DNA from: an uncultured Methylococcaceae bacterium
Lineage (GTDB): Bacteria; Pseudomonadota; Gammaproteobacteria; Methylococcales; UBA1147
Length of the DNA: 64,000 nucleotides
Assembly (NCBI GenBank): GCA_964528035.1
Contig: CAZGQY010000002.1
Span: forward strand, 4,531-68,530
Direction of reading: 5' to 3'
Position numbers and translations under genes: made by a program. Each line of letters opens with the position of its first letter. Positions within the stretch are counted from its first letter, which is position 1. This document shows, in pieces, positions 2 to 32,625 of this stretch. The notes beneath the pieces were generated by a model, which saw nothing but the letters and a program-made list of their open reading frames with translations, made no database searches and was not told the origin of the DNA.

Positions 2-2302
2 GAAGGAGAGGTTGCCGGCGGTGTTGTGATCATGCGCTTTGGTGAAAATGCCCAGGCGACCATTCGCGGTGTCCGGGCAAAACTCAGAGAACTCGAAAGC
101 GGACTGCCCGAAGGCGTTGAAATTATCCCGGTCTACGACCGCGGTGATCTCATCGAACGCGCCGTGGATACCCTAAACGACGCATTGACTGCGGAACTCA
201 ATATTGTCAGTGTGATCGTCGCATTGTTTTTGCTGCATCTCCGCTCGTCTCTGGTAATTATTATCACTTTACCGCTGGGCGTCCTGATGGCGTTTATCGT
301 CATGAAATGGCAAGGCCTGAATGCCAATATTATGTCGCTCGGCGGCATCGCCATTGCGATTGGTGACATGGTGGATGGCGCCATAGTGATGGTTGAAAAT
401 GCCCACAAACACCTCGCCGAAGACGCTGCTAACAAAAAGACTGAATTGACTGAAGGTGAACGCTGGCAAGCGATCGGCAGAGCTTCACGGGAAGTTGGTT
501 CCCCGTTGTTTTTCTCGTTGCTGATTATCACCGTATCCTTTATCCCAATCTTCACAATGGAGGCACAGGAAGGCCGCCTGTTCAGCCCGCTGGCTTTTAC
601 CAAATCCTACGCCATGGCTGCGGCAGCTATATTGACGGTCACGGTGGTACCGGTGTTGATGGGCTATTTCATTCGCGGCAAGATTATCCCCGAACAAAAA
701 AACCCCACCAACCGTTTTTTACACTATATCCATTCGCCGGTTCTGAAATTGGCGATGCGTTGGCGTAAGGTGACTTTACTACTTGCGATTTCGGTCATGG
801 TAACGACTCTTTACCCCTTGTCCAGGATAGGCAGCGAGTTTATGCCTCCCTTGGATGAAGGCGATATTCTCTATATGCCAACGGTGTTTCCGGGTATCTC
901 CATTACCAAGGCCAAAGAATTGCTGCAACAGACCGACAAAATTCTAAAGACCTTTCCGGAAGTCCATCATGTGTTTGGCAAAGTGGGGCGAGCCGAAACG
1001 GCTACCGATCCGGCGCCGTTGTCAATGATGGAAACGACGGTACGGCTCAAGCCCAAGAAGGTATGGCCTGATCCGGACAAAACCACCCAGGAGTTGATGG
1101 CTGAAATGGATAAGGCTATCCGCTTTCCCGGTTTGGCCAATGCCTGGACCATGCCGATCAAAACACGTATCGACATGCTTTCAACCGGTATTAAAACACC
1201 CATTGGGATCAAGGTTTCCGGACCTGATCTTGTGGTATTGCAGAGAATTTCAGAGGATATTGAACAGGCCATGAAGACCATACCGGAAACCTTATCGGCG
1301 TTCGGTGACCGGGCGGTCGGGGGCTACTATCTCGATTTTGACATCAACCGTGATGAGGCAGCCCGTTACGGGTTAACTATTGGTGATGTTCAGGATGTGA
1401 TACAAAGCGCTATTGGTGGAATGAATGTCACCGAAACGGTGGAGGGACTGGAGCGTTATCCGGTCAATCTTCGCTATCCTCGCGAGCTTCGTGATAATCT
1501 GGAATCGCTTCGTCGGGTCTTGATTCCCACCCCTACTGGTGCACAGATCCCACTGGTACAAGTGGCGGATCTGCAACTGCGCCGGGGACCGCCGTCCATC
1601 AAGAGCGAAGACGCCCGCCCCAATGCGTGGATCTATGTCGATATTACCACCTCCGACATCGGCGGTTATGTCGCCAAGGCGAAAAAAACCCTGGTAGATC
1701 GCGTTTCTATTCCGTCGGGCTATACCGTCACCTGGTCTGGCCAGTTCGAGTATATGGAGCGTGCGGCGCAGGGATTGCGCATTGTGGTTCCGATCACTCT
1801 ATTGCTGATTTTTCTGCTGCTTTATTTCACTTTCCGCAATATTGTCGAGCCGTTCATTGTCCTGCTGACGATTCCTTTTGGGCTCGTCGGCGGAATCTGG
1901 CTGGTTTATTGGTACGGATTCAATCTTTCGGTTGCCGTCTATGTCGGATTTATCGCGCTTGCCGGCACGGCGGCCGAAACTGGCGTCATGGTACTGAATT
2001 TTATCGATTTGGAAATCGCCAAAGTTCGGAAACTGAAGCATGGGCCATTGACTTCTCTGGAAATCAGGAATGCGGTTGAAGCTGCAACCGCTTTGCGCGT
2101 ACGCCCAGTGGCCATCACGGCTATTTCCACTATGGTGGGCTTGATCCCTATTATGTGGGCCACCGGTACCGGCGCCGATGTTACCCAACGCATTGCCGCA
2201 CCGGTAATGGGTGGAATGCTGACAGTGCTGATGCTGAGTCTGCTGGTATTTCCGGTCATCTACAGCTTTGCGCTCCAATTTCTGGAAAGGCGGCGGACGT
2301 GA
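2..2302 (+). CDS. cusA: CusA/SilA-type heavy-metal RND efflux transporter, 5'-truncated by window edge
   Basis: Frame is open from base 2 (EGEVAGGVVIMR...). RND motifs GIAIAIGDMVDGAIVMVEN, EFMPPLDEGDILYMPT and RIDMLSTGIKTPIGIKV; collinear with the CusA at 24023. Confidence 0.93.
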   Translation, partial: EGEVAGGVVIMRFGENAQATIRGVRAKLRELESGLPEGVEIIPVYDRGDLIERAVDTLNDALTAELNIVSVIVALFLLHLRSSLVIIITLPLGVLMAFIVMKWQGLNANIMSLGGIAIAIGDMVDGAIVMVENAHKHLAEDAANKKTELTEGERWQAIGRASREVGSPLFFSLLIITVSFIPIFTMEAQEGRLFSPLAFTKSYAMAAAAILTVTVVPVLMGYFIRGKIIPEQKNPTNRFLHYIHSPVLKLAMRWRKVTLLLAISVMVTTLYPLSRIGSEFMPPLDEGDILYMPTVFPGISITKAKELLQQTDKILKTFPEVHHVFGKVGRAETATDPAPLSMMETTVRLKPKKVWPDPDKTTQELMAEMDKAIRFPGLANAWTMPIKTRIDMLSTGIKTPIGIKVSGPDLVVLQRISEDIEQAMKTIPETLSAFGDRAVGGYYLDFDINRDEAARYGLTIGDVQDVIQSAIGGMNVTETVEGLERYPVNLRYPRELRDNLESLRRVLIPTPTGAQIPLVQVADLQLRRGPPSIKSEDARPNAWIYVDITTSDIGGYVAKAKKTLVDRVSIPSGYTVTWSGQFEYMERAAQGLRIVVPITLLLIFLLLYFTFRNIVEPFIVLLTIPFGLVGGIWLVYWYGFNLSVAVYVGFIALAGTAAETGVMVLNFIDLEIAKVRKLKHGPLTSLEIRNAVEAATALRVRPVAITAISTMVGLIPIMWATGTGADVTQRIAAPVMGGMLTVLMLSLLVFPVIYSFALQFLERRRT

Positions 2303-2666
2303 GAGTGTAACAATGAACAATAGTCTTTCTGGTTGCCTAACCTTTAGAAGTTCAATCAGAGGAAAATTTTAGAGATTAATATACTATGCACAACGAAAAC
2401 TTACATCTTTGGACCCATTCTCATTCGCGCTGAATCAATACAAGACAAACCCTCTTTTTCTGTAATCAAAGATTTCACTTAAATCGTGTTGGTCGGTAAG
2501 GTGACCTCTCGATTGGAACGTCTTATGTCTGTTTTTCAAGGCAAACTACCGCAATTTTTCAGCCCGGGCAGGGAGTGTGCCGGATGAATTCAATCTGGGG
2601 ATAGGATTTGCCTTCTGATTCACCATTATAAGCGGTAATCTATTTTGTTATATTTAGCCTTCTATG

Positions 2667-2690
2667 AAAAAGCCGGTTTTAAAAACCGGC
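2667..2690 (-). terminator. Intrinsic terminator-like hairpin
   Basis: Perfect 9-bp inverted repeat GCCGGTTTT-A-AAAACCGGC (2672-2690), followed on the minus strand by a T5 run. Confidence 0.45.
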
Positions 2691-2855
2691 CTCACCATCC
2701 CTTTATTTGTGGTTTTGTATGCTCTCATTCGCGATCCTTTCCTACGAAACCGCAGTGAACAATGCGGGATGAGTTTCGACGAGATTATGCAGACGGTTGT
2801 AGATTTAAGTAACCCTGCTCAACTTGTCGAGCCCTTTAGTCGAGCAATGTTTGCA

Positions 2856-3136
2856 TCATTCGCTGCCAGCCAGGAAAAGTGAATACGAAGGCTGGTAGTC
2901 CCCGGGAGGCGTAGGTCATGTTGGATACCCGTCGTGCGGAGCGCCAGAGGGGATCCGAAATTACATCCGAAACGCCGTTCCGCCATTTGAGGCAGTCCTG
3001 GCGTAACGTTTATGAAGTACTATGTGGAGCCGTGACGAACGCAGGGCAGCCGGGGCTCAATGGTTGTCGCGTAGGCGAGTCGATTCTGGTTGACTCGGAT
3101 GTCCCGCAATCTTTCACGAGGTAGCGACTCACTTAT
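2856..3136 (+). repeat. ~280-bp dispersed element, copy A (putative structured ncRNA or IS110-type non-coding end)
   Basis: 2861-3136 matches 10318-10593 with 6 substitutions in 276 bp, and is homologous in blocks to the reverse complement of 6678-6970. Confidence 0.9.
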
Positions 3137-3164
3137 CCGAGGGTCGCGGTACAGGATGATTTAA

Positions 3165-3485
3165 ATGAAACTAAAGCGACTATACATCTTAGCTATTATG
3201 TTTTTAACCTTAGGCTCTTGCTCAATTCTCGCCGCTCCAAGTTGGTCGCCTTATGCCAATGTTGCTGAGATTAGAATATCTAAGGGCAATCTGTATGTGC
3301 AACTATCGGGCAATATACTCAACACCTGCGCCAACTTTGCAGTAGTCAATATTAGCTCGGAAGGAGCTCCTCAAATGTTCGCCATGGTGATGGCTTCCTT
3401 TACGAGCGGCAAACAGATTGGCTTATACCTCTCTGATAGATGCGATCCAACCTATTACTCCTTGCTTGGAACGAGAATCAGGTAG
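3165..3485 (+). CDS. Small secreted protein, two Cys, paralogue of next gene
   Basis: N-terminal signal peptide (LYILAIMFLTLGSCSILA). Shares the SW.PY...IS.G.LY...C...K.I.L...C...G.RI pattern with 3492-3905. Confidence 0.75.
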   Translation: MKLKRLYILAIMFLTLGSCSILAAPSWSPYANVAEIRISKGNLYVQLSGNILNTCANFAVVNISSEGAPQMFAMVMASFTSGKQIGLYLSDRCDPTYYSLLGTRIR

Positions 3486-3491
3486 GTAATA

Positions 3492-3905
3492 ATGAAGTCG
3501 CAGTGTGGATCGATGGTAGCTCGTTGGGCTTATATTGTATTGACGGTTCTTTCCCTGCATCTCGTCACACGATCTGCGCTTGCAGAAAAGACGATCGAGC
3601 AACCGACTTCAGTATCAGCACCAGCCCAAACCACTAAAGATGCGACCGAAAGCTGGGGTCCATACGAACATTTGAGCGTCGTTGAAATATCCAATGGCCA
3701 CTTATATTTGAAATCACCTTCTTATACTGTTTGTAGCGCCGGAGGCTTTCTGGCACTAGACATGACTTCAGGCACGGAATGGATAGAGTATTACACTGCG
3801 GCTATGATGGCCAACGCCAAAAACAAGAGAGTTAGCCTGCGTATTAATAGCTGCAATAATTCGACCTACGTGCCAGCGATTGGTATTCGTTTGAACGGGC
3901 AGTGA
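3492..3905 (+). CDS. Small secreted protein, paralogue of previous gene (likely start ATG 3513)
   Basis: Signal peptide MVARWAYIVLTVLSLHLVTRSALA. Stop overlaps the next start (GTGATG). Confidence 0.75.
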   Translation: MKSQCGSMVARWAYIVLTVLSLHLVTRSALAEKTIEQPTSVSAPAQTTKDATESWGPYEHLSVVEISNGHLYLKSPSYTVCSAGGFLALDMTSGTEWIEYYTAAMMANAKNKRVSLRINSCNNSTYVPAIGIRLNGQ

Positions 3906-5401
3906 TGCAAAAACAAATTCGAGTTACCCTAATATTATTGATTTGCTTAGCCACCTTTGCTGGGACTTTATTTGCGTCAAACGAATATACTGCACTATTT
4001 CAAGATAATTTTGGTCCTATCAAAACCGTTAAGAGAATCACAGTAGATGGCACGCATGCCACCATTACGGACCTAAATGGCAATGAAACATCCGGTGATG
4101 CCTGCCAACTACTTGGTTGCGCTGGTTCTACCCTTATAATCGAAAACTTCAAGATCACAGCCACAGATATAGGCCCTGAAGAAGCTTGCATTCGGCTAAA
4201 AAATAGGTCGAACATCATCGTGCGCCATAACTTTATAGGGCCGTGTTCAGGCACTACGAAATGGATAGAAAGGGCATGGGCAATTTTGGCAACTGGCAAC
4301 GGCAATACGACCTCAATTAGTGTCGAAGAGAACAAATTTAGGGAGATTGAAGCTGGCGTGCGTCTCGATCGTCTAGAAGGCGGTGCATCGATAAGCAAAA
4401 ACACCTTTTATGAGTTAGATACTACGGTCAACCTAAAGACAGGCGTGATCAGCTTAAAAGATGTTAGGGGAGCAGGTAATAGAATTGAATATAACCAGAT
4501 TATCATTAGCACAGAAAACTGTTCGAAAGTAGCCTATGACAACCCAGATTTTGATACCATAAGTGTATACAACAGTCGTGGCACAGCCGCTTCGCCAATC
4601 CAGATCGTTGAAAATCGGGTGCATGGCAGCAGTTGCCCCAGTGCACCACCACCTGGGCGCCTTCGTTCAGGGGCAGGCATCATTGTTGATGGTAAGTGCG
4701 TCGATCTATCAGGGGGCAATGGCGCCTTAGATCCAAATAAGTTATGTTTAGAAAGACCGCAAGACCATTGGAATGGTTACATCCACATTAAAAACAATAC
4801 CTTAGTTAATGCCGGACCGCAACAGACGATCGTTATTAGTGGTGGCCGAAATATAGCCGTCGAAGGTAATCGAATTTATACTAAAAGCACTACCTATTCG
4901 AATCCAATAGTTTATTCTCATTTTCAACCTATAGGCATGTCTGATTATTGGATCACTGTCTAATTTAAAAATGGCGATACTGTCGCTGCGAGCGCAGATG
5001 ATTGTAGTTCGGTTGGTGGCACAACTTGCCCATATATGCGCCAGGGGTCGTGCTATAACGTCACATTTAAGGACAATAAAATACAATTCCTCAGAAATGG
5101 AACTCCCGATCCTTCTGTGTACATCCCGCATGTGAATGAGTGGGATGAAAACTATGTCTATGGTACTAACCCACACATGCCGCCCACCCCACGTAGGCCA
5201 GACGACAAACCACCACCATGCCCAGACGGAAAACTAACGAAACCATGCGAGGGCTATAACACCTGTTGCGCTGGCGAGTTCAAAAACGGATGGTGTGCTG
5301 ATTTTTATGAAGCGCCAAGCAACTACAACCGCAATCCCTTAAAGGGAACGGGCAATGTCTATTCCGACTTTAGTTTAACGTCTGAGATTTTGATCAAATG
5401 A
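3902..5401 (+). pseudogene. Secreted right-handed parallel beta-helix protein interrupted by one in-frame TAA (4961-4963)
   Basis: Signal peptide and beta-helix repeats (NIIVRHNF, SISVEENKF, NRIEYNQI, IHIKNNTL, IAVEGNRI). After the TAA the same frame stays open (FKNGDTVAAS...CPY) and joins ORF 5036-5401, which has another repeat (NVTFKDNKI). Confidence 0.75.
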
Positions 5402-5832
5402 GGAAATAGAGCAATAAAAAAACGGTAGTTTTAGTCCAATCAGAATATAATAATCGACCTGTAAATTGTCAATTTCGGTTGGGACCAATCGGGGGGATAT
5501 TAGGCGAGAATGAACATCCTCCAATAACCGGAAACTGTCCTGAGTTGCTTTTCACCCAAGTACGACACTTAACGCCGTATGTATTTGATAATAAAAGACC
5601 TGTGGTGAGGAAATGGCATTACACGGCGTCGATCGCGGGTTTTGTTCCTCCTAAATGCTTGAATAAATCGAGCTGTTCAGCATATAGATAATCGTAAAAA
5701 TACTGCGATAATTGATCAGGGAATTTGAGGGTTGAAGACTATTTAAATTTGTATATTATCCGTGAACGGGAAGATATCCCTTTCAGACCTACAAAGATCA
5801 AATCTTAACTTTGTGATTGCGATCATGTTTTT

Positions 5833-5870
5833 GGACAAGATGTCCGAATCCGAATAATGACTTGTTAGGC
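5833..5870 (+). other. Right arm of an attC-like site
   Basis: ...TAATGACTTGTTAGGC with core GTTAGGC at 5864-5870, 7 nt before the ATG at 5877. Resembles the right arm at 7977-7993. No clean left arm found. Confidence 0.45.
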
Positions 5871-5876
5871 GTACAA

Positions 5877-6575
5877 ATGAAACTTTACAAATTTAGGTCA
5901 TTCACTCCATTCGAGTACTTGGCCGATATTTTCGTTCACGGTCGGCTATTTTGCTCTCCGTATCAAAATCTCAATGATCCGTTTGAAGGTGTCTTCATCG
6001 CTTTGATTCCTACGGACTTCGGTCGTGGATTTGGACTAAATTTCGGAATGGGAGGCACTGCTGAATTGTTGAGGACTGTCGATGACATTGACGGAGATGC
6101 CATTGCCAACAAACGAGTATGCAGTCTTTCAAAATCGTGGACTGATGTTCGCATGTGGTCACATTATGCCGATGGTCATAGAGGAGTGGCCATTGAGATC
6201 GATTTCAATGGGCTAGAAGACGAAGTTCGTGAGGTGCAGTACATCGACTCCATCGAAAAGTTTGCGTCAGGTATACTTGCCGAAAGCCCAGATGCCGGTG
6301 CATTGTTGTGTAGAAAGACATTCCATTGGGATTACGAGCAGGAATTTCGGATCCTCGGTAGCGGAGAATATTTTCAGATTGAAGGCCGTATTGGGAAAGT
6401 CTATGTAGGATCGCGGATGCCGGCCAACCACAAGAACCTCTTGCGACAACTCCTACCTTTGGGCACTCGACTGGTGGATACAGAGTTGGAGAAAAATGAC
6501 ATTACCGTTCGTGAGACTCACAGTAGAGCTCTCGATCAAGGCGAGAGTGTTGCAAACAAAGGCAATCGGCGGTGA
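5877..6575 (+). CDS. DUF2971-family protein (cassette-like ORF)
   Basis: Motifs LYKFRS, LNDPFEG, VCSLS, MWSHYADGHRGVAIEIDF and K..HWDYEQEFR. ATG 5877 is in frame with the track ORF. Confidence 0.85.
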   Translation: MKLYKFRSFTPFEYLADIFVHGRLFCSPYQNLNDPFEGVFIALIPTDFGRGFGLNFGMGGTAELLRTVDDIDGDAIANKRVCSLSKSWTDVRMWSHYADGHRGVAIEIDFNGLEDEVREVQYIDSIEKFASGILAESPDAGALLCRKTFHWDYEQEFRILGSGEYFQIEGRIGKVYVGSRMPANHKNLLRQLLPLGTRLVDTELEKNDITVRETHSRALDQGESVANKGNRR

Positions 6576-6677
6576 TTGTGCCGTTCACAATATTACACAG
6601 GCGCTTGCCTGTGCCTAAATCAAGTACTGACTTGTTTACGCTGTAAAGCGCGAATGCTCCAGGACGTTATCCCGGTT

Positions 6678-6970
6678 ATAAGCGAGTCGCTACCTCGTGA
6701 TAGATTTCGGGACATCCGAGTCAACCAAAATCGACTCGTCTACGCGACAACCATTATTGCCCCGACCGTCCTGCGTCCGCGCCGCTTCGCCACACCATTG
6801 CAAGCTCGGCGCAGGCTACACAACACTCCCTCAAATGACTGGACACGATTATTCGGATGCCTACTTTGTTTTCCCTCTGGCGCGATTCGCACGCCGGAAA
6901 AACAGTGCGGCCTGATCGTTATCGGGGACTCATCGCCTTCGTTTTACTCTCCATGGCGTTCAGCGAATGA
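6678..6970 (-). repeat. ~290-bp dispersed element, copy B (diverged, inverted)
   Basis: Reverse complement shares ordered blocks with copy A (TCATTCGCTG, ACGAAGGC, AGTCCCC, GCGCCAGAGGG, CATCCGAA, CATTTGAGG) and a near-identical 3' ~75 nt ending GAGGTAGCGACTCGCTTAT. Confidence 0.85.
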
Positions 6971-7031
6971 AGTTTCAACTACCGGATTGCGCCGGTCGCG
7001 AGTCTATCGCGTGACCGTCCGCAGATAGTCC

Positions 7032-7060
7032 ATTACTGACCATTCCAAATGGTCAATAAT
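7032..7060. promoter_or_regulatory. 13-bp inverted repeat upstream of the recombinase (candidate binding or recombination site)
   Basis: ATTACTGACCATT-CCA-AATGGTCAATAAT, one mismatch, 31 nt before the ATG. Confidence 0.6.
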
Positions 7061-7091
7061 TTGGTTCCTTTTTACAGAAGAGGAACTAATC

Positions 7092-7718
7092 ATGGATCAA
7101 TCTACCAACTCAAATAGTGAAAAAGAACCCTGGAATAAAGGCAAACTGGTGGGTCAAAAACCACCGCTAAATCTCAAAGAAATCTGGGCCATCCGGATCC
7201 GGTTGCAACTCGCAAATCGAATTCGTGACCTAGCCCTGTTCAATTTAGCCATCGATAGTAAATTGCGTGCCTGCGATCTGGTGAAGTTGAAAGTCCGAGA
7301 TGTATCTCATGGAGATCGAATTGCAAAAAGGACGATGGTGTTGCAACAAAAAACCAAACAGCCCGTCCAGTTCGAAATCATGCAACAAACGAGAGAAGCC
7401 ATTTTTCTGTGGATCAATCATGTCAATCTAAAACAAAATGACTACCTCTTTCCAAGCCGAATCAAAAATTCTCCCCATTTGTCGACGCGACAATATGCCA
7501 GGATTGTGGAATCATGGGTTGTATCCATAGGCCTTGATCCAGCAGCTTATGGGACACATTCACTTCGTCGAACTAAAGCGTCTTTGATATACCGACGGAC
7601 CAAGAATTTAAGGGCCGTGCAGTTGCTCTTAGGGCATACGAAATTGGAAAGTACCGTTCGCTACCTAGGGATTGAAGTTGATGATGCATTGGAGATGGCG
7701 GAACAAACCGAAGTTTAA
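7092..7718 (+). CDS. Small tyrosine recombinase/integrase (PWNKGKLVGQKPPL family), intact catalytic residues
   Basis: DSKLRACDL (R), QKT (K), GTHSLRRT (HxxR), LLGHTKLESTVRYLG (H, Y). 208 aa. RBS GAGGA. No IntI-type insertion domain. Confidence 0.93.
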   Translation: MDQSTNSNSEKEPWNKGKLVGQKPPLNLKEIWAIRIRLQLANRIRDLALFNLAIDSKLRACDLVKLKVRDVSHGDRIAKRTMVLQQKTKQPVQFEIMQQTREAIFLWINHVNLKQNDYLFPSRIKNSPHLSTRQYARIVESWVVSIGLDPAAYGTHSLRRTKASLIYRRTKNLRAVQLLLGHTKLESTVRYLGIEVDDALEMAEQTEV

Positions 7719-7735
7719 TAGCGGATTTTTATCGG

Positions 7736-7779
7736 AAGCGGCTGTTTTTAACAGTCGCTTTGTGCTCAGGAGCTGACGT
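7736..7779 (+). other. Hairpin plus palindromic site just downstream of the recombinase
   Basis: AAGCGGCTGTT-TTT-AACAGTCGCTT overlaps GTCGCTTTGTGCTCAGGAGCTGACGT; related motifs recur at 9936 and 10000. Confidence 0.55.
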
Positions 7780-7845
7780 ACGTGAAATTTTTCGCTTGCC
7801 CCAAGCTAAAAGTCAATAAGCGCCTTCAAGGTTTCTGTTAGAAAC

Positions 7846-7993
7846 TACTAACAACGTCATAATCTACGGAATTGGATATCATGTTGTTTTAGGATGATAT
7901 ACAGTTAAGCAATTGGACCGAATTCACAAAATCGTTGTCTTGGAAACGAAAAATTGGGAAGATATGTGGAAACTTTATAATTGCTTGTTAGCT
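7846..7993 (+). other. Candidate long attC site
   Basis: CTAACAA at 7848-7854 pairs with TTGTTAG at 7985-7991. Partial inner symmetry (CATAA/TTATAA, GATATC/GATATG). Precedes the ORF at 8025. Confidence 0.45.
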
Positions 7994-8024
7994 GCGTTTG
8001 GAGCATGGAGCTAGATTAATAACG

Positions 8025-8783
8025 ATGCTATATAAATTTACTCCCACCCTAGATATCGCTGAAAAAGTCTCTACTGGAATATTCCGCTTCTATGAATTAA
8101 CCAAGTATATAAAAATGGAAGATGAAGTGGGACGATCAGATCCAGAAGAGTGCTCGGTTAGTTTTCCTACTAAAGAATATGAAGAATTCCCAGACAAGCT
8201 ACCTATAGGTAGCTTCAGAGGCATTGAATTCAAATGTATTAGCACTGGAAATAACGAGGAACATATTAGGCAATATTTTGTGTTTTGCATGAGCACAGAA
8301 ATGGATAAAAAAGCAATTGGTGACTCTAGATATATTGTTGAACTTTATCGAGATAACTTTGATTTATTTATGCAGCTCCTAAACGAACCATTTGATGATT
8401 CTGCAAATCCCGAAGGTCACCAGTTCTTTAGTCATGGTGAGGTGAAGTACTACAACATACATAACCACCCTAAACCGTTTATAGGAAATAGGTGGCGTGA
8501 GGTGTTTGTAAAACACTCTGATTTTAATTATCAAAATGAATATCGGGCAGCCTTTTTTGCTTCAGATCACTTCTTTGATAGAATTTCAGGTAACCCCATG
8601 GTGATCGAGAAAAAAATATTCGATCAAAATAAGGAGCCAATGAGTTTTAATTTGGAGCTGTATGTTCAGTCAGGTATCGATGATGAGGGTTGGCGCTATA
8701 TTGAACTTGATATTTCAGGGTTCGCTGCCAATATAAGCCCTGAACAAAGTAACATTACAGAGCTTGTTGCTGAGATAACTTGA
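8025..8783 (+). CDS. Hypothetical cassette protein, distantly DUF2971-like
   Basis: MLYKF start, FVFCMS and VKHSDFNYQNEYR echo the DUF2971 motif order. Followed by a clear attC. Confidence 0.7.
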   Translation: MLYKFTPTLDIAEKVSTGIFRFYELTKYIKMEDEVGRSDPEECSVSFPTKEYEEFPDKLPIGSFRGIEFKCISTGNNEEHIRQYFVFCMSTEMDKKAIGDSRYIVELYRDNFDLFMQLLNEPFDDSANPEGHQFFSHGEVKYYNIHNHPKPFIGNRWREVFVKHSDFNYQNEYRAAFFASDHFFDRISGNPMVIEKKIFDQNKEPMSFNLELYVQSGIDDEGWRYIELDISGFAANISPEQSNITELVAEIT

Positions 8784-8796
8784 ACATTCAAGCAGC

Positions 8797-8862
8797 AGCT
8801 AACAAGGCCAGCCAGAGGGGCTTTCGCACTACGTACTCCCGCCCCTGCTGGCGGCGTTAGAG
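8797..8862 (+). other. Integron attC site (59-be type)
   Basis: Inverse core AGCTAAC and core GTTAGAG. Left arm GCCAGC[C]AG[A]GGGGC vs right arm GCCCCTGCTGGC gives two unpaired bases (G and T on the bottom strand), the canonical extrahelical pattern. Next ATG is 5 nt downstream. Confidence 0.85.
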
Positions 8863-8866
8863 CATC

Positions 8867-9748
8867 ATGCTACAGGATGCACCGCAGATAACCGAAGAAG
8901 ATCTTCAGAAATGCAGGGACACTGGCGACTATAGCCCCGTAATGTTCGAATGGTACAAGTTTGTGGCGGGTCTATGTGTCACGTTTTCAAACTTACTCCA
9001 AGAATCGCCCGTGATCCGTAAAGACATCTCAGAAAGAGACTACGGAATACTTATTGGCCTGATTAATCGGGCTTACCGATTAATGCTAACCAACGTGGCC
9101 CTTTCTCACGAAGGGGAATTCGGCGAATCTACAAGTATCCTTGATCGCTGCATATTCGAAAGCTGCGTCATTTTGAGTTGGCTATGTGCCACAAATACCG
9201 AAGATAGATTCGATCGATATGTTGCGTCAGGTCTTAGGACGGAGCTCGAGCTAAAGGACCAAGTTAATCTCGCCCTTGAGAAAAGAGGCGGAGATGTTCT
9301 CTTAATCGAGAAACGAATGTTGGACTCTGTTGCAGACTGTATTGCGGAAGCGGGTTTTGTTGACGATCAGATTCGAGAAATGAAACCGCTTCCTAATCTA
9401 GCAGCGATGCTAGAAGCCCTTGGTTACAAGCGCTTTGCTTATACAGCGGGCCAAAGAATCGGATCGCATCATGTTCATGGTACTTGGGTAGGGTTAAGAA
9501 ACCATTTCATTGAGAAAGAGGAAGATACTGGTCGTTATCGCGCACGACAGAAAAGTTACACTCATATCAACCAATATGTTTACATTACGAGTATTGTATT
9601 AGCTGCACTATCTAAGTTCGTTGATTTCGTATTTGAAGATGCCGATGAGGAAAAGGGCGAGATATTAAATCTATTTGAATCTACGGACGAAAATATACGA
9701 ATGCTAAATATTGAAATCGTTGGTGGGGATTTCGATGCGATTGCCTAA
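8867..9748 (+). CDS. DUF5677-like (HEPN-type) cassette protein
   Basis: ILDRCIFESCVILSWL (R..FE) and GSHHVHGTW motifs. Promoterless start directly after the attC. Confidence 0.7.
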   Translation: MLQDAPQITEEDLQKCRDTGDYSPVMFEWYKFVAGLCVTFSNLLQESPVIRKDISERDYGILIGLINRAYRLMLTNVALSHEGEFGESTSILDRCIFESCVILSWLCATNTEDRFDRYVASGLRTELELKDQVNLALEKRGGDVLLIEKRMLDSVADCIAEAGFVDDQIREMKPLPNLAAMLEALGYKRFAYTAGQRIGSHHVHGTWVGLRNHFIEKEEDTGRYRARQKSYTHINQYVYITSIVLAALSKFVDFVFEDADEEKGEILNLFESTDENIRMLNIEIVGGDFDAIA

Positions 9749-9800
9749 AGTGTCCACGAAAGTCGTGCTAGATCACGCACCTATTTCGCAGGCGTTAACC
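9743..9800 (+). other. Degenerate attC candidate
   Basis: GCCTAAA overlaps the stop codon and GCGTTAACC lies 58 bp later; inner arms pair poorly. Confidence 0.3.
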
Positions 9801-9845
9801 AATTCAATATAAGGCCCGCTGTCCGATTCAGGTTGACTCTTGCCT

Positions 9846-10020
9846 GTCGCGACTCTATCCCGTGACTGCCCGGAGTTAGTCCTTTCCAGTCAGACGAAAT
9901 ATTTAACCCATGATTCGAGCAGCTTGGAGACGATTGACCGGTTGTGCTCAAGTGCGGACGTTCGCGTATCGATGAAAGTCTTATTGCGACCGGCTACAGT
10001 CTGTGCCAAAAGCAGGCGTT
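9846..10020 (+). repeat. Cluster of short palindromic sites related to those flanking the recombinase
   Basis: 9846-9872 matches 6995-7021 at 23/27. 9936-9962 and 10000-10020 share TGTGC(T/C)..A..GC.G(A/G)CGT with 7754-7779. Confidence 0.6.
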
Positions 10021-10317
10021 CGTTAAAAATTCCCTATCTGTGTTCCTATAAGCAAAAAGCTAGACGCGCGCTCTAAGCCGTTGGGGCATTGGAAAGAAGT
10101 ATCACTGGCACTGAAAGAACATTTAGATTTTTAACGCCAGAGATTTCTTCAAAATGGGATTTGTTGCCAATTTGGCCAAATTCTATCGCGATCAAATTGA
10201 TATCGAATAAAAACAATTGTATCGTATCAATGACAAGACTTTTTCTAAAAATGAGCATGGGTTTTCGGTCTACAAATGGGGCTTAATGTAGACGAGGCGT
10301 CACTTAATTGCTGCGAC

Positions 10318-10593
10318 CGCTGCCGGCCAGGGAAAGTGAATACGAAGGCTGGTAGTCCCCGGGAGGCGTAGGTCATGTTGGATACCCGTCGTGCGGAGCG
10401 CCAGAGGGGATCCGAAATTACATCCGAAACGCCGTTCCGCCATTTGAGGCAGTCCTGGCGTAACGTTTATGAAGTACTATGTGGAGCCGTGACGAACGCA
10501 GGGCAGCCGGGGCTCAATGGTTGTCGCGTAGGCGAGTCGATTCTGGTTGACTCAGATGTCCCGAAATCTTTCAGGAGGTAGCGACTCGCTTAT
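10318..10593 (+). repeat. ~280-bp dispersed element, copy C
   Basis: Direct repeat of 2861-3136, 270/276 identical. Confidence 0.9.
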
Positions 10594-10813
10594 TCTTAGT
10601 TATGGGCTTTTAAATTTACCATCATGGCCGTTTCGGCACTTCATTTACGTTTCTTGCCATGGGCTGTCTATGGCCATGGGGTAACTGTTGTAAGTCTGAC
10701 GAGAAATTGAAAAGTATGGAATAATTTATTGACATAGTTCATATTATCGAGTCGAATCTCAAGGCCTATTCTTCCCGCTTTGATTTATTCACGACCAATG
10801 CTAAGATAGTGGC

Positions 10814-11161
10814 ATGCGGAAATTCTTGTCGGTACTTCTAATGGTTGCCATCTACTGGACGTCCACCTGGATGGTGACGGACATTCACGATGTTCTTTCA
10901 ACCGACGGTGATCAACCGCACCCGATTTTTTCCGTCTTTTCCACCGATCTCGGGACAATTCTTCAGTCAGATGCGGACGATACTTCCCCATCTGAATGCC
11001 AAGTATGCAGTTATGACCACGGTGGTCATTTTGGTCAAATGCTGACTGCAACCCCTCAAATTCTTAACTTCAATCCAATTTACGGAGAATCTGGTTCTTA
11101 TTATCCATCGAACTGGTTTTCCCTTACCCTGCCCCCAAAATACCGTCCGCCAATCACCTAA
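10814..11161 (+). CDS. Small exported Cys/His protein (DUF2946/CzcI-like) upstream of czcCBA
   Basis: Hydrophobic N-terminus, CQVCSYDHGGH, C-terminal PPKYRPPIT; typical position ahead of a metal RND operon. Confidence 0.65.
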   Translation: MRKFLSVLLMVAIYWTSTWMVTDIHDVLSTDGDQPHPIFSVFSTDLGTILQSDADDTSPSECQVCSYDHGGHFGQMLTATPQILNFNPIYGESGSYYPSNWFSLTLPPKYRPPIT

Positions 11162-11606: not shown

Positions 11607-13038
11607 ATGAGCGCTAAATATTTTTGCTTCCGTCAACCAGTTTCACCCGTCACCGGTTGTGGCATCTGTTTTCAAAACAACAATGTTTTAGGATTAACAC
11701 GACCTGGAAAATTATTCATTATTCTTTTCGGTTTCGCTTTGCAAGTCATAATTCCTGTAAACAGCGAACCGCTTAAACTCGAGTACACCTCGCCTCCATC
11801 GCCTGACATGCCGGCGAAATCAATCGAGATTAATGAACCCCGCGGGGAGTTATCGTTGGCTACGGCTTTGTCGCTGGCTTTGTCGCACAATCCAACACTA
11901 GCTGCTGCATCCCGAGAAATCCAAGTACAGGATGGAGTCGTCCAGCAAGCGGGACTTCTGCCTAACCCGGTATTCGGCGTATCGGCTCAGAACTTCGCAA
12001 ATTCAAGATTGCAGGGAGTTGACGGTGATGCGCTTAATTGGAGCCTTTCTCAAACTGTTCTGCTCGGCGGTAAGCGCGCCAAAGCGATCCGGGTCGCGGA
12101 GCTTGGTCGGGAGCTTTCCGTATGGGACTACGAAAGCAAACGAATGGATCTATTAGCCGAAGTTGTGCTGAGTTATATCGGTCTTGTAAAGGCTCAGCAG
12201 GGATTGAAACTTGCCGATGGCCTGGTAAAGCTTGCCGACCATATGATGGAGGCGGTCACTGTCCGTGTCAAAGTCGGCGAAACTTCACCAGTGGATGAGA
12301 CACGCGCCCGGGTAAGTCTGGCTTCCATACAAATCGAAAAGCAGCGCGCGGAGCGAGCATTGGCAACGGCGCGAAAACGGCTGGCGGCCACCTGGGGCAG
12401 TGCCTCTCCGGAATTTGAAGTTGCCCAAGGCCAACTGGAAACGGCAAAACCAATTCCTTCTTTCAGTGCTTTGATGGATCGCATTGCTCAAAACCCCCAA
12501 TCTTGCCCGCTGGGCCAGCGAGACGATTCAGAGACAGGCGTCCATTGATCTGGCTAGTAGCCGTGCGATTCCGAATCTGACGATCAGCCTCGGGGTTCAG
12601 CAATACCTAAAGACCGGTGACAATGCTTTAGGTGCGGGAATTTCGATACCCATACCCCTTTTCAACCGCAATCAGGGCAATATTCTCCAGGCCAACCGGC
12701 GTTTCGACAAAGCCCTGGATCGACAACGGGAAACTCAAGTTTTGGTCAGCACAACTCTGAATACAATCTATCAGCAATTTTCCGCTGACTACGCCGAGCT
12801 CAGCATTCTTGAAACAACGGTCCTGCCGGGTGCGCTAAGCGCCTTCGAGGCCGTGCAGGAAGGTTATCGCCGGGGCAGATTTAACCTGTTGAATGTACTC
12901 GATACACAGCGCACGCTGTTTGACGCCAAAATACAGCATCTAAGGGCTTTGGCAAGTTATCACCAATCGAGGATCAAGATACAGCGTTTGATCGGAGAGC
13001 CTCCTGAAACGGCGCAAAGCTTGGAGGTCAAAAATTGA
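11607..13038 (+). pseudogene. czcC: CzcC-like TolC outer-membrane factor split by a +1 frameshift
   Basis: ORFs 11607-12548 and 12484-13038 encode consecutive TolC halves. Removing one C from the C5 run at 12494-12498 restores RIAQNPNLARWASE. Confidence 0.85.
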
Positions 13039-14516
13039 AAAATCTACAAGCAGTTGCATGCCAGATGCTCAATATTCCATTCACGATGACAGTCGGTCAA
13101 AAATCAGGCGGCCTTCCATCGGAACCACCAGTGAGCTTTGGATCTTCAGTCAGAACAGATAAGCGAGTCGAAATCATGGATCATTTAGAAAGTAGCTTAA
13201 TAAGCCCCCTGATAGGCTTAATTCTTCTTATTCTTGTACCTATTCATGGGCAAACAAACCAACTGGATTACAAGAATTCTAATCCGACGATGCCAAATAA
13301 GGAACACGTGAACGAAATTGAGGAGCAACACGCACACGACAAACATGCTAACGAAAGCGGCAAAAACGCCCGTGAAGGCGAAAATCATAACGATCATGAT
13401 GTCGGTAAAGAAAAAATGGACCATGAAAACGAACAAGACGAGCATAACTCGCTCAAATTCAGTCCGGATGTACTTAAAGAGTTTGCCATCAAATTGGCAC
13501 AAGCGAATTCCGGGTCCATTAGGGAAACATCGCTCCTGTCGGGCGAAGTAGTTGTTGCTCCCGACAAGCTTTTTCACGTTATCCCTCTGGCGGCCGGCGT
13601 GGTCCGCAAAGTCTTCAAACAATTAGGTGACAGCGTCAAACAAGGCGATTTATTGGTAACGCTTTCCAGTCGGGAACTGGCTAATGCTAAAACAAAGCTC
13701 GTTGCTGCCAACAGCCTCTTGCGGTTAGCTGACGCGAGTCTGAAACGGGAGCGCGAACTGTATAAGAAAAAGGTCACGGCTAAACGGGAATATCTTGAAG
13801 CAAAACAGGCTCAAACTAAGGCGGCTATCGAGCTTAAATCAGCCAAACAAGGCCTTTTGGCCTTAGGGTTATCCATCCAGGATGTAGTTTCAGTCCTTCG
13901 TTCTAGTGGCGACGATTTGACGCGTTATGAACTTCGTTCTCCGGCAGAGGGCATCATCATTTATAAACACGCAGTTCATGGTGAAATTCTGAACACTGAA
14001 ATCAAAGCTTTCACTATCGCGGATCTGGATCGGGTATGGATTAATTTGACCGTTTATCAAAAGGATTTGCCTCTTATTCATAAAGGTCAGGCCGTACTGA
14101 TCTCTACACGCCATGGTTCGTCGGCGGAACAGTCAGAATTTCGCGGTGTTATCGATTGGATCAGCCCGACCCTTTCCGAATCCACCCGCAGCGGCACGGC
14201 GCGGGTCATACTTGATAATGTAAACAGGCGATGGCGTCCCGGGTTGTTCGTGAATGGAGCAGTTGTCATAGCTAAAACCGCAGCCAAAGTCGTCATTCCG
14301 CGAAGCGCATTGCAGAATATTGAAGACCGGACCGTGGTCTTCGTCCAGGAAGGCGACGAATTCGAGCTGCGGCCGGTACAACTGGGCCGAACAGACACCC
14401 ACCGGGTAGAAATCGTGCAAGGTCTTGAGTCGGGCGAAACCTTTGTCAGCAAAAATGCTTTTACTCTCAAAGCACAAATGTCAAAGAGTGCATTTGGCGG
14501 CGGACACTCGCATTAG
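13035..14516 (+). CDS. czcB: CzcB-type membrane fusion protein with His-rich N-terminus (likely start ATG 13176)
   Basis: GDSVKQGDLLVTLSSRELA, YELRSPAEG, LDNVNRRWRPGLFV; His/acidic tract; ends GGHSH. Confidence 0.9.
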   Translation: MKNLQAVACQMLNIPFTMTVGQKSGGLPSEPPVSFGSSVRTDKRVEIMDHLESSLISPLIGLILLILVPIHGQTNQLDYKNSNPTMPNKEHVNEIEEQHAHDKHANESGKNAREGENHNDHDVGKEKMDHENEQDEHNSLKFSPDVLKEFAIKLAQANSGSIRETSLLSGEVVVAPDKLFHVIPLAAGVVRKVFKQLGDSVKQGDLLVTLSSRELANAKTKLVAANSLLRLADASLKRERELYKKKVTAKREYLEAKQAQTKAAIELKSAKQGLLALGLSIQDVVSVLRSSGDDLTRYELRSPAEGIIIYKHAVHGEILNTEIKAFTIADLDRVWINLTVYQKDLPLIHKGQAVLISTRHGSSAEQSEFRGVIDWISPTLSESTRSGTARVILDNVNRRWRPGLFVNGAVVIAKTAAKVVIPRSALQNIEDRTVVFVQEGDEFELRPVQLGRTDTHRVEIVQGLESGETFVSKNAFTLKAQMSKSAFGGGHSH

Positions 14517-14536
14517 ATTTCGGGAGAATTTATAAC

Positions 14537-17500
14537 ATGATTGATAAAATAATTGCGTTTTCATTGCAAAGCCGAATGCTGGTGATCGCCATGGCGGTGC
14601 TGATTATGGCCGCTGGATATAGCAGCTACCAAAACCTTCCGGTGGATGCATTCCCCGACGTTTCTCCCAACCTGGTGCAAATATTTACGGTCACCGAAGG
14701 CTTGGCGCCGGAGGAAATCGAAATGTACGTCACGTACCCGGTGGAAGCGGCGATGACCGGGTTGCCAGGGATTCAAAAAATCCGTTCGGTCTCCAATTTC
14801 GGGCTATCGGTGGTCAATATTTATTTCGAAGACGATATGGACATTTACTTTGTCCGTCAACTGGTCAACGAACGCCTGCGAGAAGCCCGCGATCAGATCC
14901 CCGGAGGATTTGGTGAACCGGGGATGGGACCTATTTCCACCGGTATGGGCCTGGTGCTGTTTTACTATCTGAAAGATGACACGGGAAAATATACGTTGGA
15001 AGAACTCCGAACCTTTCAGGATTGGATCGTCAAATTCAATCTGCAAACCGTCAAGGGTGTGACCGAGGTACTCGGTATCGGCGGTTTCGAAAAACAGTTT
15101 CAGATTGTCGTACACCCGGAGTCTCTACTACGCTACGACGTGACCCTCAGCGATATTATTGATCGCGTTAAAGCCAATAATCTGAACGTCGGCGCTCAGT
15201 ACCTGGAAAAAAATGCTGAGCAGTTCATTATCCGCTCGGTCGGATTAGCGACGGGAATTCCCGATATCAACAACATCATTATTAAAACCGTGGATGGTCG
15301 TCCGGTTTATCTAAGGAGTATCGCCGATGTCAAAATCGGTGGCGCCATCCGCCGGGGTTTACAAACCCGCAATGGCGAGGGTGAAGTAGTCGCGGGCATG
15401 GCCATTAAACTTTTCGGTACCAACGCGTCGACCGTCATTGAGCGGGTGGAAAACCGGATCTCGGAAATCAATAAGAGCCTACCCGATGGCGTCAATATTG
15501 TGCCCTATTATCAGCAGAAGGATATCGTCGAAGCGGCGGTCAGCACAGTCAGGAGTGCTCTGATTCAAGGCATCGTCCTGGTGGCTTTAGTGCTTTTTGC
15601 GTTTATGGGCGGATTCCGGCCCAGTTTGGTAGTGGCCATGGCTATCCCGTTTTCGGTGCTTTTCGCCTTTATCGCCATGGGCCGGTTGGAAATGTCCGCC
15701 AACCTGATGTCACTGGGTGGCCTGGCCATCGCCATCGGCATGATGGTGGACGGTACTATTGTCATGGTGGAAAATGTCGACCGAATGCTGCGCGAAGCCG
15801 ATCCGAACGAACCCCGACTGCATGTCGTTGGCCGAGCCTGCCGGGAGGTTGGGCAACCGATTCTGTTCGCCATCTCCATCATCATTATCGTGTTTCTGCC
15901 GCTATTTACCCTGGAAGGTGTGGAAGGTAAGACCTTTCGGCCCCTCGCCTATACCGTCGCTCTGGCGATGCTGGGTTCTTTGATCTATGCGTTATTTTTA
16001 GCGCCAGTGTTTTCAGATCTGATCATGCGAAAGGAAAAGCCCCGCGCCGATGGCAAGCCGAACCTGGATGTGCGTATTCTTAATGCGATCCTTAAACCCT
16101 ACCGCCCGATGGTTGCTTATTTCGTTGACAACCGAAAAATGGCGATCGCGCTTTCGGGAGGGCTTTTTCTAATCGGCGCCGTGCTTTTTCCTTTTCTCGG
16201 CGCGGAATTTACCCCGAAACTGCGCGAAGGCACCATTGTTGTACGTCTCACCATGGCGCCATCCATCGCTATCACTGAAAGCAGACGCAACACCTTGATC
16301 GTTGAGCGTCGTTTGTTAAAGATCCCTGAAGTGATCGAAACCACTAGCCGCGTTGGCCGTGGGGAAGTTGGCGCCCATGCCGACCCGATCAATTCGGCGG
16401 AAATGTATGTGATCTTAAAGCCCAAGGACGAATGGCGACGCCCGGGCGATCAAGAGTTTATCGAAAATGAGATTCGAAACACGGTGAGCGAACTGCCGGG
16501 TATTACCGCTAACATTACCCAGCCCATCGAAATGACCGTTGATGAACTATTGGAAGGGGTGCGGGCCGAGTTGGCAATCAAACTGTTCGGCGACGATTTA
16601 GGCATCTTGAAAAAGAAAGCCGATGAAATCGCGGCCGTAGTTAGACAGGTGCGTGGCGCCGCCGATCTTCAGGTCGATCAGGTCTCCGGCACACCCCAAC
16701 TGGTGATTCGCCCGGATCGCCATGCTATTGCCCGCTACGGTTTGAATCTGGCCGATATCCAGGAAGTCATTCGAAGTGCGGTGGGTGGTGTCACCGCCGG
16801 TCAGGTTTTCGAAGGGATTCGCCGCTTCGATATCTATGTGCGCTATGAAACCGATGCACGCGATACCGCGGAAGCGATTCAAAACATTCTCATCACCGGA
16901 CCGGACGGTATCCGGGTGCCTCTTTCGCAATTGGCCACGGTCAAGGAAATCGTCGGTCCGCGTCAGATCACCCGCGAAAATAACCAGCGGTTTATTACCG
17001 TCCAGGCCAATGTGATCGATCGCGATATTGTTTCTTTCGTGGAAGAAGCGCAGCAGGCAATCGACGATAAAGTAAAGTTACCGCCGGGCTATCTAACCAC
17101 CTGGGGCGGGCAGTTTAGGTTGCAACAGGAAGCGAATAAGCGATTAGCGGTGGTCATTCCGGTGACTTTGTTGATCATTTCACTGCTGCTTTATACCAGT
17201 TTCAATTCGATTAAGAATGCTGCACTGATATTGTTAAATATCCCCTTAGCGCTAGTGGGCGGTATCATCGCTCTGTGGATCAGTGGGCAAAACCTGTCGG
17301 TGCCTTCTTCGGTAGGCTTTATCGCCCTGTTCGGCATTGCACTTGAAAACGGCATGGTGCTGGTTACTTATCTCAATCAACTGGTGCGTAACGGTATGCC
17401 GATCGATGAAGCCTCAATCAGTGGCGCTTGTCTCCGGGTACGGCCGGTATTGATGACAGCGGTAACTACAGCGCTGGGGCTTTTACCCCTATTGGCAGCG

Positions 17501-31965: not shown

Positions 31966-31968
31966 CGT

Positions 31969-32361: not shown

Positions 32362-32584
32362 TGACTTCTGCCTCCCATGCTCGGTCCCTGGCTTCTTCGA
32401 ATGGGATGTATTCTTTAGCGTACTGGTTTAGACTACCGGCCAGGTCTCCGAGTGGTTCTAAGCGGACTTGGCCGTTTTCAATGACAACTTTAACGACATT
32501 CGAACCCAGAAATTCACGGACTTTCTTGGGTAAGGTGATCTGACCCTTTTTCGAGAGTTTGGCTGTTTTTTCATAATCGATCAT
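32339..32584 (-). CDS. vapB: AbrB/MazE/SpoVT-type antitoxin
   Basis: AKLSKKGQITLPKKVREFLG...VRLEP; overlaps the PIN gene start. Confidence 0.85.
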   Translation of the reverse strand: MIDYEKTAKLSKKGQITLPKKVREFLGSNVVKVVIENGQVRLEPLGDLAGSLNQYAKEYIPFEEARDRAWEAEVNDKYSHR

Positions 32585-32625
32585 GGCTTTACCTTTTTAC
32601 ACTCGCATAACTTTATTATATCGCA

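Follow-up and report, generated by a model that had tools for sequence, protein, structure and literature searches.

The window analysed here is a 64-kb (64,000-nucleotide) stretch of contig CAZGQY010000002.1, from an uncultured Methylococcaceae bacterium. Between positions 5,833 and 9,800 it carries what look like the remains of an integron cassette array, and a tyrosine recombinase of another kind lies among the cassettes. Four open reading frames (ORFs) occupy the + strand of this region, at 5877-6575, 7092-7718, 8025-8783 and 8867-9748. The first, third and fourth belong to three cassettes, which we take to be real: a DUF2971/PDC-S31 gene, an ORF of 252 residues and a DUF5677 gene. The second encodes the recombinase, of 208 residues. 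It is the single protein of a 758-bp module (7011-7768, + strand) that stands between cassettes 1 and 2 and whose two ends carry its own double-stranded site in inverted orientation. An initial annotation of the region had described cassettes with a different recombinase among them, and this arrangement is borne out.

Cassettes and their attC boundaries

Since Rfam holds no attC family, we built two covariance models of our own, R1 and R2. An IntI1 sequence, which matched real loci at 100%, served to fetch 80 loci with intI1 or relatives of the integron integrase (IntI). R1 was seeded with 25 distinct attC sites of 57-72 nt from these loci, in cassette orientation; in its alignment, the R and L helices are paired in 95% of cells and 9 of the 16 pairs show compensatory changes. 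On chromosomal integrons, used as a positive control, R1 recovered about 30 non-seed attC sites of 56-130 nt at 20-68 bits, nearly all on the expected strand. An attC motif of Methylobacter led to at least 119 genome loci, mostly from Methylococcales, and R1 found 107 attC sites (23-62 bits) in 33 of them. R2 is the lineage-specific model made from these 107 Methylococcales sites; it gives 40-82 bits on Methylobacter tundripaludum. The window was scanned with both models on both strands, filters off, at E≤10.

Both models single out the same site. The sole match of R1 in the window is 8795-8863 (+ strand, 17.0 bits, E 0.059), and that of R2 is 8797-8862 (+ strand, 21.6 bits, E 0.0054). The initial annotation had called 8797-8862 a canonical attC with both extrahelical bases. 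The attC itself holds; one extrahelical base is found at the canonical position, the second is not evident in the model register, and the minimum-energy fold has one bulge per arm. This only model-recognised site, the attC of cassette 2, lies on the coding strand, 14 nt past the stop codon of ORF 8025-8783 and 5 nt ahead of the ATG of 8867-9748. Its boxes in the model register, R'' AGCTAAC and R' GTTAGAG, each agree at six of seven positions with RYYYAAC and GTTRRRY, respectively. The fold reaches -16.6 to -16.8 kcal/mol, with z-scores of -1.7 to -2.4 against shuffles.

Cassette 2 (7988-8856, + strand) consists of the 252-residue ORF at 8025-8783, of no known family, and this attC. Homologues of the ORF with 75-77% identity occur in a Desulfobacterales metagenome-assembled genome (MAG) and in Motiliproteus coralliicola. 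These two loci and the window have no similarity upstream of GTTAGCT (7987-7993) and are alignable from exactly there; downstream, the stop codon is common to all three, and so is AGCAGCAGCTAACAAG, the R'' box of the attC. Boundary and box are conserved across three bacterial orders. The homologues, too, are flanked by attC sites: GTTAGCT is the end of an attC of 18.9 bits in the Desulfobacterales MAG, and an attC-like site lies 15 nt past the stop in M. coralliicola. In the window, the 5' end of the cassette, TTAGCT, and its final G together make GTTAGCT, and with this end R' becomes an exact complement, seven bases of seven, of the cassette's own R'' AGCTAAC, as expected of a cassette excised at G|TT. 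Because the homologues align exactly from GTTAGCT and share the R'' box, and because its ends are complementary, we regard 7988-8856, on comparative sequence grounds, as a complete and genuine integron cassette, and 7987-7993 as its true boundary.

The same observations bear on whether the locus has to do with integrons at all. A chance hairpin or a transcription terminator at 8797-8862 would suit the modest model scores, the single scored site and a fold that departs from shuffles by only -1.7 to -2.4. It does not account for a boundary and an R'' box conserved around homologous ORFs in three orders, for similarity that starts exactly at that boundary, for a boundary that complements the cassette's own R'' at seven bases of seven, or for the attC sites beside the homologues; moreover, the host order has large arrays of related attC sites. 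We hold this explanation to be very improbable, and it appears largely refuted.

The remaining candidates, at 5833-5870, 6613-6641, 7846-7993 and 9743-9800, had been proposed as weaker attC sites. Neither model reports any of them at E≤10, and we read them as decayed cassette boundaries. When folded, the hairpin at 6613-6641 stands out from shuffled sequence (z -3.2 to -5.9) and the other three do no better than shuffles. GTTAG, which has a frequency in the window of only 0.0005 per nt and strand, lies 11-38 nt ahead of each of the three cassette start codons (at 5864, 7987 and 8856); this statistic is post hoc.

Cassette 1 opens with GTTAGGC (5864-5870, + strand), its presumed 5' boundary, an R'-like core that matches GTTRRRY exactly, 13 nt ahead of the ATG at 5877; R1 and R2 do not recognise the sequence upstream of 5864 as attC. 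Its ORF (5877-6575, + strand) encodes a DUF2971 protein (Pfam, E 1e-7) that matches PDC-S31 of PADLOC, a candidate single-gene anti-phage system, at E 2.4e-51. The 29-nt hairpin that follows (6613-6641, + strand) opens with GCCTAAA, which agrees at six of seven positions with the complement of the cassette's 5' boundary. It is below attC length and is probably the stump of the attC of cassette 1. Ahead of cassette 2, 7846-7993 (+ strand) is an AT-rich spacer of 148 nt that ends in the boundary GTTAGCT.

Cassette 3 carries the DUF5677 gene (8867-9748, + strand; Pfam, 61 bits). Its homologues occur in attC-bounded cassette arrays, with the boundaries GTTAGGA ... TCCTAAC, in a Sedimenticola MAG (L303) and in another metagenome contig (L307). 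In L303, GTTAGGA precedes the DUF5677 gene and a 60-nt attC (20.9 bits) follows it, from TCCTAAC at the stop codon to GGCGTTATGC; in L307, attC sites of 38.7 and 23.7 bits lie upstream of the gene. Position 9743-9800 of the window (+ strand), GCCTAAA ... GTTAACC with the GGCGTTAACC end, has the place and length class of the Sedimenticola attC, GCCTAAA standing where the R'' box would be. Because of this place and length, and because the invariant C of AAC is gone and the R''/R' pairing is broken, we read it as the decayed attC of cassette 3.

The cargo of the L303 array (3001-6768) comprises, with DUF5677, a ThsB-like TIR gene, SLATT and a HicB antitoxin. It is a further case of defence-type cargo in cassettes.

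An IntI had been reported as lacking, and this is confirmed for the 64-kb window: tblastn with IntI1 finds only the 208-residue recombinase (30% identity to IntI1 over 63 residues). No further recombinase or transposase turned up among the larger window ORFs scanned. Exchange of cassettes driven by an IntI from within the stretch is unlikely, because none is encoded in its 64 kb.

Clusters of attC sites lacking an integron integrase are known as CALINs (Cury et al. 2016, PMC4889954), and IntegronFinder 2 by default requires at least two attC sites for one (PMC9024848). The description of the region as a CALIN stands as to the missing IntI and falls short as to the sites, with one scored attC in the window instead of two close ones. 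In L001, a contig described below, there are two attC sites 1.9 kb apart, the second of which (16.7-20.7 bits) is in the alternative right flank only. As in integron cassettes and CALINs, G|TTRRRY cores enclose single, promoter-less ORFs that all point the same way. The likeness extends to the one attC with R''/R' and L boxes in canonical register, to the ends of cassette 2, which reconstitute complementary R'' and R', to the lack of a nearby IntI and to a cargo that includes a candidate defence gene. As differences, the array has one model-recognised attC for a threshold of two, its remaining boundaries are decayed, and it is broken by a repeat copy and by the recombinase module, which has unrelated sites of its own.

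The 208-residue recombinase and its module

The recombinase (7092-7718, + strand) consists of a catalytic domain only (Pfam Phage_integrase, 73 bits). It aligns with residues 130-281 of XerD, and its LRACDL, HSLRRT, LLGHT and VRY fall on what we take to be the catalytic residues of XerD: R, H-x-x-R, H and Y are conserved, and all of them are present. About 42 residues precede the catalytic domain, and the N-terminal core-binding domain is absent. Every NCBIfam match of the protein is under its cut-off. The integron-integrase models give 18.2 bits for a cut-off of 265 (TIGR02249) and 15.4 for 435 (PRK15417), and only the C-terminal 60 residues align; the protein is not an IntI, a family of about 320 residues with an extra domain of its own. 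Nor does it qualify as XerC (63 for 335) or XerD (46 for 330), or as a FimB/FimE-type invertase (PRK09871, 30 for 222; PRK09870, 18.8 for 221).

At least 8000 homologues are among the matches listed, and identity in the best 120 ranges from 75 to 89%. Their names go no further than ‘integrase’ or ‘tyrosine-type recombinase/integrase’, the latter in RefSeq. Relatives are found in at least 574 genome loci and on at least 424 plasmids, many of these from clinical and environmental bacteria. The module is widespread and compact and has apparently gone undescribed: in the full-text literature that was searched we found no account of this recombinase family or of its sites, which does not prove that none exists.

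The limits of the module emerge from copies in different surroundings. A relative with 95-99% identity in the sequencing run X4 is homologous from 7011 to 7768, with different DNA on either side; in the nearest genome copy, homology spans 7049-7760. Two loci (L030 and L034) are 99.6% identical over exactly 743 bp, and two contigs of one MAG (L056 and L075) are 99.7% identical over 743 bp, both pairs having unrelated flanks. The remaining pairs tested share mostly 730-790 bp (one pair 962 bp), and the flanks are always unrelated. Against 80 homologue loci, blastn with the flanks found no conserved DNA farther out than about 80 nt on the upstream side and about 60 nt on the downstream side. In a Pseudomonas aeruginosa plasmid compared with about 620 ptx plasmids (mostly of Klebsiella), similarity ends at ...TTATTGG|CCGGTTAGCGACC, which defines the end of the module and its inverted terminal repeat. 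On the sequence of these copies, we infer that the module travels as a unit.

One such copy, on the P. aeruginosa plasmid pPA942-IMP45 (L168, 5900-6700), directly adjoins a phosphite-oxidation (ptx) cluster; in the comparison with the ptx plasmids just mentioned, it stands in place of the final ~24 nt of the cluster's LysR gene.

In homologue loci, the stop codon of the recombinase gene is followed by a hairpin and then by the motif CCGGCCAGAAGCGGNCRTTC, an inverted copy of which lies about 80 nt 5' of the start. Solo copies occur nearby, and some of them overlap in inverted orientation, so that two 12-bp arms and an 8-bp centre make up a palindrome. Counted with up to three mismatches, the 18-nt motif has a density of 13.2 copies per 100 kb over the 80 homologue loci; the two control sets have 1.45 and 0.74. 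A weight matrix of the site was made from 20 homologue loci, the window being excluded, and run on both strands of the whole window. Its two top matches lie on either side of the gene and point outward: the right site S1 (7750-7782, + strand; spacer TTGTGCTCA at 7760-7768), the best at 15.6 bits and above 20 of 20 shuffles, and the left site (7012-7044, - strand), second at 12.1 bits.

After cassette 3, 9853-9964 (+ strand) looks like a miniature derivative of the module, made of its two ends without the gene. It comprises M' (9853-9905), about 67% identical to the left end of the module by hand count, and a site S2 (9932-9964), whose spacer TTGTGCTCA (9942-9950) is that of S1 (7760-7768), in direct orientation. 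A further site-like sequence, TGTGCCAAAAGCAGGCGTTC (10000-10021, + strand), has three mismatches to the 18-nt family motif; S2 and this sequence, 50 nt apart, may be in tandem.

The module shares several traits with known systems. Like an insertion sequence (IS) or a miniature inverted-repeat transposable element, it is compact, with one gene in about 0.75 kb, and multicopy in some genomes, and it has a gene-less miniature that keeps both ends and terminal inverted repeats of 13-23 bp (CCGGTTAGCGACC in the Pseudomonas copies). Unlike an IS, it encodes a tyrosine recombinase of phage-integrase fold instead of a DDE, DEDD, HUH or serine transposase, its ends are complete recombination sites, and no target duplication is defined. 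It resembles the Xer sites and pdif modules of Acinetobacter plasmids (see also PMC7399989) in its Xer-like catalytic domain, in sites that place a short spacer between inverted arms of about 11-12 bp, and in blocks of genes that lie between sites in either orientation. It differs from them in a recombinase encoded inside the element, in the sequence of the arms, and in one putative acting protein in place of a C/D pair; at 208 residues and without the N-terminal core-binding domain, that protein is far under the XerC and XerD cut-offs.

FimB/FimE invertases, of about 200 residues, are similar in size and likewise have no N-terminal domain, and their inverted sites also surround a short segment. 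The 208-residue protein could be a DNA invertase of the FimB/FimE or RecV kind, a phase switch that does not move DNA between loci. The weak NCBIfam matches (30 and 19 bits), the inverted sites bracketing the gene and the many solo sites in both orientations near homologues all agree with this. However, the scores are far under the cut-offs of 221-222 bits, the bracketed segment is the recombinase gene itself, and near-identical units of 743 bp recur at unrelated loci, in different species and twice in one MAG.

Meetings of the module with integrons are few. Among 81 loci, integron features accompany the recombinase family in the present one, in L030, with one attC of 41.5 bits, and in Methylobacter tundripaludum SV96 (L050), with three strong attC sites 3-5 kb downstream of the recombinase homologue. 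Upstream in L050 lies a 173-residue Xer/IntI-like N-terminal fragment cut by an IS3 element. The tblastn matches in L037, L042 and L050 were rejected as IntI, those in L037 and L042 being Xer-like and under the NCBIfam IntI cut-off, and that in L050 being this fragment. None of the other Methylococcales attC loci that were fetched has the recombinase. The association with integrons is occasional, not regular, as would be expected if the module lands in variable regions, of which integron arrays are one kind.

Junction variants at the recombinase sites

The sequencing runs that contain the locus carry the label subsurface metagenome. Junctions were read from assembled contigs and from unitigs of these runs, the DNA left of the spacer in the window being termed left a. 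Contig L001 is 100% identical to the window over 3013-9950 and then diverges as GGAGCTGCCATTC..., and contigs L002 and L003 continue past 9950 like the window. The DNA left of 9950 has three right partners: AGTGCGGACGTTCG in the window, L002, L003 and run X1; GGAGCTGCCATTCAG in L001 and runs X1-X3; and AAAGCGGGCATTAAG as a minor form in X3. In X1, left a is joined to the right side of the window (a|a) at depth 6 and to that of L001 (a|b) at depth 2. X2 and X3 contain a|b together with b|a, in which the right side of the window follows a second left side, left b, whose similarity to left a was counted by hand at about 75%; X3 has a third junction, a|c, with the partner AAAGCGGGCATTAAG at depth 2. 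In X4, a different right partner, AAGCGGTCGATT..., follows 7768 and is a fitting arm. Contigs and unitigs taken together thus give the DNA left of the spacer at least four different right partners. All five right sides open with an arm that fits the family consensus (RRKGCKGNCRTWC), and minor and major junctions coexist within single samples.

The identity common to the variants at the switch point is 16 bp only, and it coincides with the spacer of the recombinase's own sites. Such a length is short for RecA-dependent exchange. For this reason, and because the arms fit the consensus, we infer that the junction switches are made by site-specific recombination, with the 208-residue protein as the putative catalyst. 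The family would act on double-stranded core sites and not on folded attC hairpins. In a core site, a spacer of about 8-10 bp would separate two arms of about 11-12 bp (consensus AAGCGGNCRTTC) that are inverted relative to each other, and exchange at this locus would take place at or just past the spacer TTGTGCTCA. Recombination between such sites could link the cassette-carrying block to varied partners. Since S1 and S2 are direct repeats, recombination between them could also excise 7769-9950 as a circle.

Past 9950, the alternative right flank in L001 (7159-7857 and 8407-8493 of the contig) holds a PIN-like toxin cassette, with an ORF of 162 residues, a small downstream ORF and the second attC-like site, followed by tRNA-Leu(CAG) and RNase R. 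The 5' half of this site is identical to a Methylobacter attC at about 18 of 21 positions (hand count). A third, diverged copy of the M' motif lies past the PIN cassette. In L307, a PIN gene 53% identical to that of L001 comes directly after the DUF5677 gene; the two cassettes are adjacent there, whereas the miniature element stands between them in the window and L001.

A group II intron, suggested by GTGCG after the junction at 9951, was rejected: Rfam returns nothing and the alternative partners show site-type arms. A metagenome scan for GATTCGAG N{12,20} CCGGTTGTGCTCA returned chance matches in coding sequence only.

It is conceivable that the locus is a plain CALIN, a decaying array in which the recombinase is an inert passenger and the variants come from homologous recombination and strain divergence. 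The cassettes and one attC are real, the loss or gain of the surrounding island is explained inside a 276-bp repeat with no site-specific enzyme (see below), and an S1 x S2 joint was not seen. Against this, the catalytic residues are all intact in a strongly conserved recombinase family, the switch points fall on a 16-bp identity that is the spacer of the recombinase sites, new partners open with a fitting arm, and minor junctions stand beside major ones in one sample. We consider the inert passenger unlikely. The variants at S1 and S2 also speak to the invertase discussed above: they place different DNA right of the spacer, not the same DNA inverted, although a large inversion between distant sites would look alike. 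With the scores and the dispersed units, this makes an invertase, in our judgement, distinctly improbable.

Our preferred reading, with a probability of roughly 0.6 for the whole, is a worn remnant of an integron cassette array combined with a compact module of a 208-residue tyrosine recombinase, the module's own sites, and not the attC sites, being where variants swap partners; as part of the same explanation, the array remnant belongs to an island of 7.46 kb that varies between strains and lies in the chromosome of an uncultured Methylococcales relative. Of the two ALTERNATIVES offered by the initial annotation, the first, a decaying array invaded by the recombinase, fits best, the module being discrete and having unrelated flanks elsewhere. 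The second, a recombinase that captured cassettes or moves blocks of them, is supported in part by the partner switching at its sites, where the recombinase would be the catalyst.

Several observations weigh against this reading. The attC at 8797-8862 scores low, 17-22 bits against 23-82 for the control attC sites, and the models are self-built, not those of IntegronFinder, with E-values that are only roughly calibrated. S2 is weak in the weight matrix (1.1 bits), its left arm being off the family consensus, and most relatives have CCGGCCAG where the window has the spacer TGTGCTCA. In the assembled unitigs, which drop rare forms, neither an excision circle nor a deletion joint of S1 x S2 was seen. 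The junction variants could be fixed strain differences and not ongoing events. Finally, because no empty and occupied pair of one target site was found, the case for movement of the module is made from the identity of its copies.

Beyond this locus, the 208-residue units may be very widespread and so far undescribed mobile elements, minimal and autonomous, and at the same time a second, IntI-independent system that moves cassettes. With about 0.75 kb, a single catalytic-domain-only gene, inverted ends that are complete sites, and miniatures, they would fuse, excise and reshuffle neighbouring gene blocks, among them integron cassettes left without their integrase. We put this forward tentatively, as an idea somewhat more likely to fail than to hold. 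Pseudomonas, Burkholderiales and Methylococcales are among the groups in which the units occur, and many plasmids carry them as well. To our knowledge, orphan cassette arrays are usually viewed as dead ends, mobile only with an integron integrase supplied in trans. Here, a simpler recombinase with sites of its own lies inside an orphan array, and junctions switch at those sites in natural populations. If the enzyme catalyses the switching, cassettes without an integrase, defence genes included, gain another route of mobility. Given the abundance of homologues, the module would be of interest well beyond the present locus, and a recombinase of 208 residues with a site of about 32 bp would be a candidate tool for genome engineering.

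The repeat, the island and the surrounding chromosome

A 276-bp repeat brackets the island. Copy A (2861-3136, + strand), at its left, is 98% identical to copy C (10318-10593, + strand), at its right; copy B (6678 to about 6970, - strand), inverted and diverged, lies inside, and the unitigs of several runs break at its borders. Unitigs of the repeat have 3-5 times the depth of the flanks. No Rfam family, transposase or conserved ORF was found in the repeat, and it is absent from the 80 related loci that carry the recombinase. Folding gave no support for a structured RNA, the z-scores of the two strands being -0.6 and -1.1. More generally, Rfam at gathering thresholds over the whole window, and in a permissive scan of 2300-11000, returned no relevant RNA family.

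Contig L169 is 99.2-99.9% identical to the window, lacks 3137-10593 and has a single copy of the repeat. This copy is a hybrid: its first two variable positions, 8 and 15, resemble copy A, and its last four (237-271) resemble copy C. From the hybrid it follows that the island was lost or gained through recombination inside the repeat, a step for which the 208-residue enzyme is not needed. The left boundary of the repeat (CGCTGCCGGCCAGG) was also considered as a recombinase integration site of the island and rejected, since the crossover falls after position 15 of the repeat and before position 237.

Copy B begins 37 nt past the hairpin 6613-6641, and the initial annotation had invoked an IS1111-attC element to explain its place. 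An element of this type would have targeted the attC and brought the recombinase along. This does not hold up: the repeat is 276 bp without a conserved ORF, no IS110-family gene or other transposase is among the window ORFs scanned, copies A and C are not beside attC-like sites, no copy is inside an attC site, and the repeat is missing from the 80 recombinase loci. The boundaries of the module, 7011-7768, are moreover separate from copy B. We give such an element hardly any credence. IS1111-attC elements and group IIC-attC introns are the invaders known for attC sites, and here, too, something foreign lies within a cassette array. Unlike them, it comes here without a DEDD transposase, a reverse transcriptase or an intron RNA (Rfam), and the module is outside any recognisable attC.

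The left half of the island (3165-5401) has four ORFs with no match to a curated family, and none of them is in the island-free contig L169. Two, of 106 and 137 residues, are paralogues with signal-peptide-like N-termini; the others have 353 residues, with a weak beta-helix match, and 121 residues.

The remainder of the window is ordinary chromosome, with cytochrome bd, arginyl-tRNA synthetase, PriA, and an H+-pyrophosphatase adjoining a pyrophosphate-dependent phosphofructokinase. The arginyl-tRNA synthetase shares 68-74% identity with proteins of Methylobacter and Methylococcaceae, on which grounds the host is a relative of the Methylococcales. At 29225-35010, where G+C is lower, the minus strand encodes a complete type I restriction-modification system (HsdS, HsdM, HsdR). 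Around the island, a heavy-metal cluster (26-2302, 11607-17668, 18285-20597 and 21214-27178) combines three czc/cus-like RND efflux operons and a P-type ATPase in 27 kb. The outer-membrane efflux gene right of the island (11607-13038) is represented by two overlapping ORFs of 313 and 184 residues, for both of which an OEP domain is listed in contigs L171 and L172, where the gene calls are identical. The calls are not alike in the related contigs L169 and L170. The split into two overlapping ORFs suggests a frameshift.

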